A stretch of 64,000 nucleotides of DNA, taken from contig JAGIQG010000011.1 in NCBI GenBank assembly GCA_024679065.1, positions 57,598,001 to 57,662,000 of the forward strand, written 5' to 3'. The position numbers and the translations under genes were made by a program. How positions within the stretch are numbered: the first letter of the stretch is position 1; the number at the start of each line of letters is the position of its first letter. This DNA comes from Sphyrna mokarran. Taxonomy: Eukaryota. Shown in pieces: positions 5,146-16,530 of the stretch. The notes under the pieces were generated by a model that was not told the DNA's origin, did no database searches, and worked only from the letters and a program-made list of their open reading frames with translations.

Positions 5146-5853
5146 CCAACAGGTGCGGTGCAGATTTAGTCAGGAGATATGAGCAATGCCTATCATTGCA
5201 TCTACCTAATACGTTGCAAGAAAGGATGTCCCGAAGCATGGTATATTGGGGAGACCATGCAGACACTACGACAGCGAATGAATGAGCATCGCTCAACAAT
5301 CACCAGGCAAAACAGTTCCCTTCCTGTGGGCGAACACTTCAGCAGTCATGGGCATTCGGCCTCCGACCTGTGGGTAAATGTTCTTCAAGGGGGCTTTTGT
5401 GATACACGACAGCGCAGAGTCGCTGAGCAGAGACTGATAGCCAAGCTCTGCACACATGAGGACGGTCTTAACAGGGATCTTGGCTTCATGGCACACTATC
5501 TGTAACCCCCGTAACTTGCCTGGGTTAGCAAAAAACCTCACTTACTGTGCTGTCTGGAGAAAATACACAATTCTCTAACAATGCTCAGGATCCCCTTCAC
5601 ACACATTGTTAGCAACTTTAACACTTGAATAGCAGGTTAGATGTAAGGATTCGCATTCTAATCAGCAATCTCTGACTGTCTGTGCTGATGTGTGCTATTG
5701 CAGACCAGAACACTGCATTTGCCTGAGGAAGACACAGAGTGTTGAAAGCTTGCAATTTTGCTATCAAATAAATCGGTTGGATTAAAACTTGGTGTTGCTA
5801 AATTCTTACTGAGTTCTTACCACCCCAATCCAATGCCGGCATCTTTACATCAT
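5146..5853 (+). mobile_element. Penelope-like element, 3' fragment with GIY-YIG endonuclease end and pLTR-like tail
   Basis: ORF 5179-5505 CIYLIRCKKGCPEAWYIGETMQTLRQRMNEHR...VGEHF...RRVAEQRLIAKL...GLNRD is a classic PLE GIY-YIG C-terminus. Tail has ctgaggaag...gaaagc. Confidence 0.9.
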
Positions 5854-7120: not shown

Positions 7121-7279
7121 CTTAATTTTAGAATGCAATTTTTGTGGAGCTGAAGTTTCATGCAGCTGCAGAGATAGAACCAGTGACAGATAGGCCAGGA
7201 ATTTACCACTATTAGCTGATAACCTGACAAGTTTCTGCCTCTGAGCCATTTTAAAATAGACTGGAGAGAGTGAGGGGTT

Positions 7280-8203
7280 ATAGGTCTGATGTTACAAGTG
7301 TATAGAACGTTGGTTAGGCCTCACTTGGAGTACTGCGTCCAGTTCTGGTCGCCGTACTACCAGAAGGATGTGGAGGCCCTGGAGAGAGTGCATTTACCAG
7401 GATGCTGCCTGGTATGGAAGGGCTGTCTTACGAGGAAAGATTGAACGCACTGGAGTTGTTTTCCCTTGAAAGACGTCGGCTGAGAGGGGATCTATTAGAG
7501 GTATATAAGATTATGAGGGGTATAGATAGAGTAAATGGTGGTAAACTTTTTCCACCATTAGAATCGGATAGAACGAGGGATCACGGCCTTAGGATGAGGG
7601 GAGCTATGTATAAGACGAATATTAGAGGGCATTTTTTCACACAAAGTGCAGTGGGGGTGTGGAATGCGCTACTGAGTGGGGTGGTGGGAGCAGGCATGCT
7701 AGGGTTGTTTAAGGGTCTCTTGGACAGCCACATGAGCGGTCTGCAGATAGAGGGATATAGGAGGACTGTTAAATACTTTATTTGTTTCCACAGGCTATTC
7801 GGTCCACCTTGTTGACCAACAAGGCGCATGCATTCGGCAGGTCATGCGAGGGCTGCTCTTGGATGTTACTTCAGGAGTGGCCTAGTGCTTCATGTCGTTA
7901 GTGTATGCTTAAACTGGACCATCACATGGGCAACATGACAGCTCAGAGACTATCGCTGTTGCTGTGCAGACACATGGATTTGGGCCTATGTCTGCGGGAG
8001 TTTGCGCGTTCTCCCTGTGGTTGCGTGGGTTTTCTCCGGGTGCTCTGGTTTCCTCCCACATCCCAAAAATGTGCTCTTAGGCTGATTGGGTAACAAATTG
8101 TCCCTATATTGGTCTCTATATGTTATTAAGACGTTAGGACGCGGCGCGGGCTCGTTGGGCCGAAGGGCCTGTTTCCCGTGCTGTGTTGTTCTTTGTTCTT
8201 TGT
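7280..8203 (+). mobile_element. Young CR1 3' fragment with an extended 3' UTR containing a V-SINE core
   Basis: RT C-terminus (LVRPHLEYCVQFWSP; ORF 7402-7815). V-core at ~7988-8100. CR1 stem-loop gggccgaagggcct and (gttcttt)n end. Many CpGs retained. Confidence 0.88.
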
Positions 8204-8824
8204 AGGTAGGAAGGGAGATAGAGAATTGGCTGCCATCTATCTACAAAAGGCAATTAGTCAATTAAGCCACCCAAAATATCTATTAAAGCCACTCCAACTG
8301 AACTGACTGAAATTTTCTTATCAACATACCGGTCTTTGAGACTGAAATATGGCCTAGGGATGGGGACAACCTCCCATTGGCAAACCAAGGGGTCAGCACT
8401 CCATTCAAGTAGCAATACCAGCCAACCATCCTCATCACTGCCATATCCACTAGGCTGGAGATAGTGCTGCTGCTGCTGCCCAGTGAAAGGGTTGAATCTC
8501 CTCGTTGATGGCCTAGCAGCTGTTAGCCTTTTTGTATTCATATATTTATAAAAGATCTTCAGTAGGGACCTCCATCTTGAGGAACCATCTATTTCTCCAA
8601 CCGATATCAGCAACACTCATCTTGCATGGTGAGACTGCTGACCTTTCATTGCTGAAGCACACCCTCTATTGGTCACCAGCTTCAGAATTTTGCCCACAGG
8701 CTTCAACTGGTTGGGGCAGCAAAAGGTGGCTACTCCATTGAATGCCTCCTTCAAAATCACTTCCTGGTTCCCGTCGCCTGGAATTCATTGCAGCACTGGG
8801 ATCAGACTCTGGAACAAAGAAACA

Positions 8825-9789: not shown

Positions 9790-10140
9790 GGGGCAGCACA
9801 TTAGCACAGTGGTTAGCACTGCTGCTTCACAGGTCCAGGGTCTTGGGTTTGATTCCTGTCTCGGGTCACTGTCTGAGTGGAGTGTGCACATTCTCCTCAT
9901 GTCTGTGTGGGTTTCCTCTGAGTGCTCCAGTTTCCTCCCACAGTGCAAAGATGTGCGGGTTAGGTTGATTGGCCATGCTAAGAAATTGCCCCTTAGTGTC
10001 CAGGGATGTATAGGTTAGAGGGATTAGTGGGTATAATATGTAGGCACATGGGGGTAGGGTCTGGGTGCTATTGTATTTGGTGTAGACTTGATGGGCTGAA
10101 GTGCCTCTTTCTGCACCGTAGGGTTCTATGATTTCTATGA
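9790..10140 (+). mobile_element. HE1/V-SINE-type SINE, tail A, full length
   Basis: gggcagcac..gcacagtggttagcactgctgc head, V-core, ttctatgatttctatga end. Confidence 0.9.
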
Positions 10141-15438: not shown

Positions 15439-16530
15439 CTAAACAAACACAGTTTCCACTACTGATGTTTTAATAGTCTCTTCTAACAGTCCGTTGCCCT
15501 CTGGGAGGATGACGGTATTTTCCAGTACCTGCTTAGGTGCATAAACATCACCATTTGAAGCAGCAACATAGTCATCTTGAACATGGTTATTTAAATAGCT
15601 TTGAAGCTCTGCTTCAGAGTTGTTAGGTTGTTGCTCAGCATATAAACTGTTGCACTGAGCATTATTTTCATGTGCTGAAGGACAACAAACTATCACAGAA
15701 GGTGTCGTTATGGGGTAGTGAGCACCGGTAAAGCTTCCCTCTGGCTGGTGTGCATATTCAATATATTGCTCTACAGCTGAGCCGTAAGGCACCAAGGAAA
15801 GTGCTCCATTCTCCTGACCCCTCTCTGTATAATTTGATGTTAAAGTGGCTTCTACACAGAAAGGCTCGTTGCCACAATCTGTAGTAGCAGTTGTAGTGCT
15901 GGTAGTAGCAGCAGTGGTAGCAGCAGCAGTATTACCCTCTATCTGATAATATAGTGTTGAAGAATTAGTGTAATAAGTGGTATCTTCTGCTGGCGTGCTA
16001 TCATGTGCGGAAGTGCCATCGGCATAGCATAGCACAGAGGAAAGGGGAATAGATTCAGTTTGTGCCACAACAGGGGCAGCCAATGCTTCGCTAAAGCTTT
16101 CAGCTTTGCTGTCTGCCTCTTCGTCCGACTCACTGGCTGCCAAGCTCTGAACGCTGGAGTCTGTTATGCCACTGCACAAACTGCTCCCATCGTCATCGTC
16201 ATCCTCCTCCTCATCTTCTGCTTGCCAGTCCAGCTCCTCTGCTGACTGAAGGTGCATCACTGCCGTTTCGGGTTCGTTTTCAATGTCAAAGCTATCCGCA
16301 ACAGAATATTCGTGGGGCTGCTGGCTTTGTATCAGGTGACTAGCGTGAGCATTCATCTCTGCAGAGAAACCATTCTCTATCCCGAGCTGCTGCTGATTTT
16401 TCTCCAACTCAAGCTTCATTATTGTGTGCAAAAAATGTGTCCGTACTCTAATAGGGTTGAACTCAATCCTGCCTGCAGTATTACTGCAGCCTTCTTTTGT
16501 GCACCCACATGGGAAAGACATGCGGTCCAC
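15439..16530 (-). CDS. CSRNP3: CSRNP3 terminal coding exon (363 aa + TAG)
   Basis: Acceptor cttttcctctag. Translates [45 protein letters not shown]... and ends ...[10 protein letters not shown]. The C-terminal motifs (SVLCY, STLYYQI, LSLVPY, PSVIVCC, VVETV) are CSRNP3-like rather than CSRNP1/2-like. Confidence 0.95.

Follow-up and report, generated by a model that had tools for sequence, protein, structure and literature searches.

The 3′ untranslated region (UTR) of a high-copy CR1 LINE lineage, represented in the DNA of Sphyrna mokarran analysed here, contains a structured block as a fixed part, located between the ORF2 stop codon and a captured SINE, probably a V-SINE. Based on folding predictions, this block very probably forms a G-U-rich rod of ~45 pairs closed by a helix, P1, and comparisons among subfamilies suggest with good confidence that its shape is under selection. 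Coordinates refer to the window, i.e., the whole stretch of 64,000 nucleotides that was analysed. An earlier note on this DNA had postulated an undescribed structured module of a CR1 3′ UTR, and this idea was borne out in that the block is multi-copy, linked to CR1 and subject to compensatory changes. The note's idea that other CR1s of the window are free of the block also held, as there is no second copy within the window.

The host element and its copies

The two features that define the host copy are the following:
7281-8207, + strand: 5′-truncated copy of the young CR1 subfamily A, with 96% identity to a longer copy over 7275-8204
7284-7772, + strand: 3′ end of ORF2, with the family stop at ~7770

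A candidate 5-bp target-site duplication flanks the copy (7281-7285 and 8203-8207), which is short and may be due to chance. Longer copies carry ORFs for APE and RT plus an esterase-like ORF1, and the full element is ~4.6 kb long. Among the Pfam domains, RVT_1 and Exo_endo_phos_2 scored above the cutoff, while Lipase_GDSL_2 was found below it (E 1e-5) on a partial ORF1; an esterase ORF1 is typical of vertebrate CR1s according to passages of PMC13343379. By its ORFs, its tail with a microsatellite and its scattered 5′ truncations, the host element is a canonical CR1 LINE. In the window copy, one T is missing near ~7770; because of this one-base deletion, the frame runs on into hairpin H1 of the block, to 7815, which is a copy-specific defect. 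An ORF2 stop inside H1, as in readthrough or a SECIS element, was thus rejected, given that the family stop lies ~30 nt earlier and that no SECIS match was obtained.

Our genome search returned at least 1584 candidates for subfamily A alone; 40 of these were scored, and the 39 other than the window copy were 99% identical. Of 29 other copies that had been selected on nothing but the downstream sequence, 27 ran through the block into ORF2, and the remaining two were truncated within it. The block was also present in 116 of 117 distinct copies having the derived SINE head and upstream ORF2, most of these loci having been selected on the block; the only one without it is truncated and lies beside another CR1. 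In contigs from four public runs (organism labels A, B, C and F, one of which may be the species of the window itself; RNA status guessed), block-holding bins are covered, which indicates presence only.

The earlier note had assigned the block to one CR1 subfamily, an assignment that proved too narrow, as five subfamilies (A to E) carry it. A search pattern that fixed the H1 stem and excluded the loop of the window copy gave 309 matches, mostly older relatives. Subfamilies B, C and D came from further searches, and E from a covariance-model scan of the collected loci; over these 455 kb, the model found no relative more distant than E. The copies used were 66 of A, 63 of B, 21 of C and 4 of D, and later 13 of D and 19 of E, the later sets being those of 20 loci each that had the anchor motif. 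The ORF2 proteins of the subfamilies differ by 5-21%.

Predicted fold of the block

The structural features of the block are the following:
7801-7920, + strand: structured block, with closing helix P1 (7801-7806 / 7915-7920) kept in five subfamilies
7807-7824, + strand: hairpin H1, 7 bp with a variable 4-nt loop, in subfamilies A-D and absent from E
7826-7908, + strand: long imperfect rod (7826-7833/7901-7908, 7835-7839/7893-7897, 7844-7846/7886-7888 and terminal stem 7850-7863/7870-7883)

The 120 nt of the + strand fold at -55 kcal/mol (z -4.72; reached by 0 of 200 shuffles), whereas the same 120 nt of the - strand are unremarkable (z -0.13). Folding better than shuffled sequence, a check that the earlier note had called for, was therefore found on the + strand, and the strand specificity agrees with its preference for an RNA structure in the LINE sense over a decayed DNA palindrome. 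Of 75 windows (120 nt each) along a full-length copy, none folds better than the block (z -6.3). The majority sequences of all five subfamilies fold as P1 plus rod with z -3.0 to -5.1 on the + strand; that of subfamily D also folds fairly well on the minus strand (z -3.1). This behaviour of D weakens the case for a shape kept by selection, as does the finding that two ORF2 windows fold as strongly. In the near full-length A copy L091, these are the window around the RT active-site codons (L091:5597-5716; z -6.0 to -6.1) and the one at the ORF2 start (L091:3677-3796; z -3.5 to -5.1).

The fold differs in its layout from the one first drawn from the letters, all of which stand where they had been quoted. 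P1 and the hairpin H3 of that drawing are both part of the supported fold, H3 corresponding to the terminal stem of the rod (7850-7863/7870-7883), and its four non-Watson-Crick pairs are indeed G-U on the + strand. The hairpin H1 was likewise recovered, paired in 99% in the copy alignment, while its proposed 2-nt AC loop was not. A hairpin loop of 2 nt is not possible, and H1 can only be a stem of 7 bp with a GACC loop. This loop varies under a fixed stem in the 309 pattern matches, the stem having been fixed by the pattern itself. The third hairpin proposed, H2 (CGCAUG...CAUGCG), has a pairing probability of 0, and its positions can pair in 66.2% of cases across 34 copies of four subfamilies, as opposed to 88-94% for the rod helices; CAUGCG itself depends on a minority allele, A at 7844, found in 5 of 66 subfamily A copies. 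Instead, 7826-7839 pair with 7893-7908 at a probability of about 1, such that H3 caps one long rod. The arrangement of three packed hairpins in a four-way junction was consequently abandoned, its energy being -40.3 kcal/mol as compared with a minimum of -55.0 kcal/mol.

Several known identities of the block were considered. A MITE or decayed palindrome was rejected based on the strand-asymmetric fold and on the location of the block within the CR1 UTR or its truncations; G-U pairs outnumber A.C pairs 10:0 in A and 11:1 in C. The known Rfam families (ribozymes, SECIS, snoRNA, miRNA and 5S/tRNA heads) gave no covariance-model match, at E<=10 for the window copy and E<=1 for the B, C, D and E copies, and ARAGORN found 0 tRNAs in the window. 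The suggestion that the block is a ribozyme or a captured known non-coding RNA thus found no Rfam counterpart in five subfamily versions. We regard such an identity, or that of a miRNA precursor, as highly improbable, in spite of the compact 120-nt domain with paired 5′ and 3′ ends and of a rod about as long as a miRNA precursor. Unlike a catalytic core, the junctions and loops differ in their letters, and E has no H1; furthermore, cleavage at this location would separate the tail from the ORFs, and the 5′ ends of the copies show no accumulation at a single position. The scattered 5′ ends also led us to reject an independent SINE, or a Pol III head, starting at 7801. Breakpoints were roughly estimated at about 78 per nt at the block start and 64 per nt at its end, and they show no excess at the P1 foot that would indicate stalling of the RT.

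Our literature search found no description of the block; Repbase/Dfam, subscription papers and supplements lie outside this search and could contain a consensus. Passages of PMC4824008, PMC5786205, PMC6887750 and PMC13343379 make no mention of such a block.

Covariation and probable selection on shape

On 34 real copies, 93.7% of the pairs of the rod model can form, as opposed to 35-46% for slid controls, and none of 500 shuffles attained the rod covariation score of 0.148. Taken by themselves, the numbers of double-sided changes do not exceed those of shuffles (233/500 and 77/500), and the covariation signal is carried by only five related masters. Run on 17 copies including E, RNAalifold independently recovered P1 and the rod; both partners had changed in 5 of 36 pairs. 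Hence the comparison of aligned copies proposed in the earlier note did reveal compensatory changes, by RNAalifold and by the covariation score against shuffles. Two of them can be followed through an intermediate: at 7859/7874, U-A became C-G by way of U-G, and at 7839/7893, G-C became A-U by way of A.C.

Dead copies mutate neutrally; therefore, changes at the level of the master elements were compared with those that followed insertion. Pairing was kept by 12 of 14 master-level changes, compared with 61 of 190 (32%) post-insertion changes outside CpG and 192 of 380 (50%) of all such changes (p 5e-5 and 0.007, respectively). The 14 changes were tallied by hand, leaving out D 44 and C 1, both attributed to CpG decay, B 72 on account of how the gap is placed at the poly-T loop, B 52 as a register shift, and A 93, which was counted once with pair 39/93. 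When the changes of A were judged on the fold of B, 9 of 11 kept pairing (p 0.001 and 0.035). Among A-D, the block diverges more slowly than four-fold sites (0.04-0.17, compared with 0.12-0.32 for these sites; for 4 of 6 pairs, p<0.05) and has fast-diverging spacers on both flanks.

Subfamily E, the youngest, is the most informative on the same question. It is very young, with 1.4% divergence from its majority sequence among the best matches, and abundant (1576 candidates). Relative to A, 22% of its block sites differ, compared with 7% in the SINE part (p 0.0006) and 12% of four-fold sites (p 0.09). Nevertheless, the E block folds at -46.8 kcal/mol, while A sequences randomly mutated with the same substitution types reach -32.2 +/- 3.7 kcal/mol, a value as low as that of E being matched by 1 of 800, and a real E copy has z -3.89 on the + strand. 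E lost H1 and kept 26 of 30 rod pairs of A (p 0.03 for the whole block and 0.08 for the rod only). Four rod pairs are broken, three pairs of the upper stem among the breaks; new pairs arose by transversion (U-G to A-U at 7854/7879 and G-C at 7843/7889), among them those of a new basal helix, ACAU/AUGU. Because E lost H1 and 22% of the letters of A yet folds far above matched mutants, we infer that selection would act on the P1-closed rod, with H1 and most of the sequence dispensable.

The same pairs could also have a non-adaptive origin, which we consider unlikely. A fold-back born at the capture event would have hitchhiked with successful ORF2 lineages, and its G-U bias would stem from ADAR edits of the duplex fixed by reverse transcription. 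The private changes of the rod do include more A>G (23/1303) than T>C (15/2499; p 0.001), a skew stronger than that of ORF2 (99/8096 vs 55/5834), and the master changes are mostly transitions; many of these are A-to-G opposite U, which RNA editing could yield without selection. Nevertheless, the A>G excess over ORF2 and SINE together is marginal (p 0.057), editing cannot make the new pairs of E, which need transversions, and in A-D a block that evolves more slowly than neutral sites lies between fast-diverging spacers. As a weak hint, the A>G skew in the rod may reflect ADAR editing, and so a real germ-line duplex.

Flanking sequences and possible function

The features that flank the block on both sides are the following:
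7774-7794, + strand: pyrimidine tract followed by CAG/G, similar to a 3′ splice site, with 13-15 of 16 pyrimidines and an invariant CAG/G in five subfamilies
7790-7806, + strand: antisense relic of a CR1 3′ tail, complementary at 15-16 of 17 positions to the element's own tail (8156-8172), overlapping the acceptor-like site and the 5′ strand of P1
7928-8110, + strand: captured degenerate SINE, probably a V-SINE, with a tRNA-like head that lacks the B-box segment and is remodelled into hairpins, followed by a V-type core
8140-8204, + strand: CR1 terminal stem-loop (8140-8184) and (GTTCTTT)n microsatellite

The degenerate SINE starts seven bases past P1 and aligns from its first base with a free SINE at 9790-10100; the match of the head was reached by 0 of 2000 shuffles for that copy and was not significant for a second copy. 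The rod precedes the first base of the SINE and could not be aligned with the window's free SINEs. The captured SINE is probably of the type labelled HE1, with a V domain. The remnant of its head at 7960-7995 has been reshaped as a hairpin, in which one pair shows a compensatory C-G / U-A change when A and D are compared.

On the 5′ side, the first 17 bases from 7790 are probably a relic of an inverted tail that is partly masked by P1. This relic resembles the antisense tails of other CR1 families, and three copies with 5′ inversions (L249, L258 and L259) have their breakpoints at it, just before P1. The duplex of relic and tail would have an energy of -24 to -27 kcal/mol. One function that could be ascribed to the block from this complementarity, rather unlikely in our judgement, is that of a mask or switch for the RT-recognition tail. 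P1 and the rod would prevent the relic from pairing with 8156-8172 or, in a variant, would toggle between a tail-free and a tail-sequestered state, i.e., between translation and priming. The complementarity of 15-16 of 17 in all five subfamilies, the kinship of the relic with other antisense tails and the position of P1 as the least changed helix are in line with such a role, as is an alternative fold lying just 5-9.5 kcal/mol above the minimum (forcing the pairing costs +5.0 to +9.5 kcal/mol). Against it, folding predictions give the long-range pairs a probability of 0 in every one of the five subfamilies, the departures from an antisense tail look like decay (three C-to-T transitions and two pair-breaking changes), and the upkeep of the distal rod would be left unexplained.

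The pyrimidine tract raises another possibility, namely that CAG/G is a working 3′ splice site and that the structure tunes splicing or exports the unspliced RNA in a manner likened to a retroviral transport element. By a crude score, this site is the best of its kind among the 476 AGs of a full copy, and the acceptor-like motif stays in five subfamilies while the tract differs among them at 10-52% of sites. A donor-like site, GTG/GTAAGT, is present in the 5′ UTR of most full-length subfamily A copies, ~55 nt before the ORF1 ATG, and AG precedes the site in 24 of 41 copies that begin there (p 0.04 relative to a simple expectation). We nevertheless find splicing quite unlikely. With an exact pattern applied to subfamily A, 0 genomic copies join the donor to the acceptor, and no such joint occurs among the 15/71 joints listed from contigs, and from contigs only, of the four public runs. 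Of 64 non-intronic junction matches, 50 were examined and 41 were family copies; no spliced retrocopy was found among them. The best candidate, L260, which seemed to show an exact GT-AG removal, proved to be a unique nested insertion; L269 was rejected as an insertion too, and L263 has a single 123-nt join with a weak donor. The antisense relic also accounts for the motif CAGG, as microhomology does for AG at junctions.

Two further observations were made on these copies. Full-length A copies share one 5′ start and a TATA-like motif in their 5′ UTR (L091:2305-2660). At L294:2045-7600 (G000:C783), a truncated B copy lies inside another B copy, inserted at a 5-nt microhomology; this nested cluster is interrupted by an antisense CR1 and has short inverted pieces after both tails.

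The reading that we favour, and that we consider about as likely as not, is that the block acts in cis as a docking site for a shape-reading protein that stabilises or routes a lengthened mRNA; which of these steps is affected we would state with much less confidence than the fold or the selection on shape. Capture of the V-SINE would have extended the UTR, initially a short tail, to roughly 430-600 nt. With a compact rod and a U/C-rich tract right after the stop, the template RNA might then be more stable or better delivered, being read by a host dsRNA-binding protein or by the element's own ORF1p, and masters with such a UTR would leave more copies. By burying part of the antisense relic, P1 may also keep the RT-recognition hairpin free. 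RT recruitment, another function suggested earlier, is unlikely as the main job of the block because the terminal stem-loop is present separately for RT recognition; moreover, free V-SINEs and another CR1 of the window end in a CR1-type tail and do without the block, which makes a function during the lifetime of the autonomous mRNA more likely. A point against the docking site is that other CR1 families of this genome have amplified without the block.

Known systems offer partial parallels. In stringent L2/CR1 LINEs such as ZfL2-1 and ZfL2-2, ORF2p binds stem-loops of the 3′ tail (PMC4176376). Like these tails, the block is a structured RNA in a LINE 3′ UTR that would act in cis on the element's own RNA; unlike them, it lies 280 nt upstream of the terminal stem-loop, is much longer, and does not occur in SINEs or in other CR1s whose tail is of this type. 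The HE1 V-SINE and HER1 CR1 pair of sharks and rays appears as a table row in PMC3747384, and MER6 carries a headless V-SINE according to a part of PMC6887750. The downstream neighbour of the block is, similarly, probably a promoter-damaged V-type SINE inside another element, whereas the rod lies upstream of the SINE and gives no alignment with the free SINEs of the window.

By analogy alone, and with no membership claimed, the block also resembles the localisation signal (ILS) of the Drosophila I factor, a stem-loop by which a non-LTR retrotransposon directs its RNA. The ILS and related Egl-BicD stem-loops are bulged and read largely by shape, as stated in a section of PMC13186709. The ILS differs in that it is part of a coding region and has an insect adaptor as its partner. 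In an analogy of the same kind, the RNA stability element of Rous sarcoma virus has PTBP1 sites behind a stop codon (PMC4764554) and, as in the CR1 UTR, this pyrimidine-rich sequence follows shortly after the stop of a retroelement mRNA whose 3′ UTR is long. In the CR1 case, unlike the viral one, the tract measures ~16 nt, the UTR is ~0.5 kb long and the conserved feature is a duplex.

For the 3′ UTRs of CR1-group elements, a terminal stem-loop is considered to be almost sufficient. A larger domain in addition to it, with its shape maintained in five amplifying subfamilies, would thus point to an unrecognised step of the LINE life cycle, such as stability, transport or the gating of priming. 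The subfamilies constitute a natural mutational series that includes a variant without H1, and the function would be separable from the neighbouring V domain. In sharks and rays, 22-34% of the genome consists of CR1-group elements (PMC13343379). A wider proposal, which we hold to be doubtful, is an arms race in which a vertebrate LINE lineage assembled a novel cis-acting RNA domain out of junk, namely an inverted tail, a fold-back and the captured SINE. If true, the domain would gate or route the template RNA, as a vertebrate counterpart of the I-factor ILS or as a switch for RT access to the tail, and E would have changed one letter in five, seemingly to evade a host repressor that is sequence-specific, and at the same time have rebuilt the rod.

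Elsewhere in the window, a fragment of a GIY-YIG domain was located at 5170-5505 (+ strand), which we presume to be the end of a Penelope-like element. An exon of a CSRNP-family gene (Pfam CSRNP_N) was identified at 15442-16530 (- strand), with the CR1 copy ~7 kb downstream on the opposite strand.
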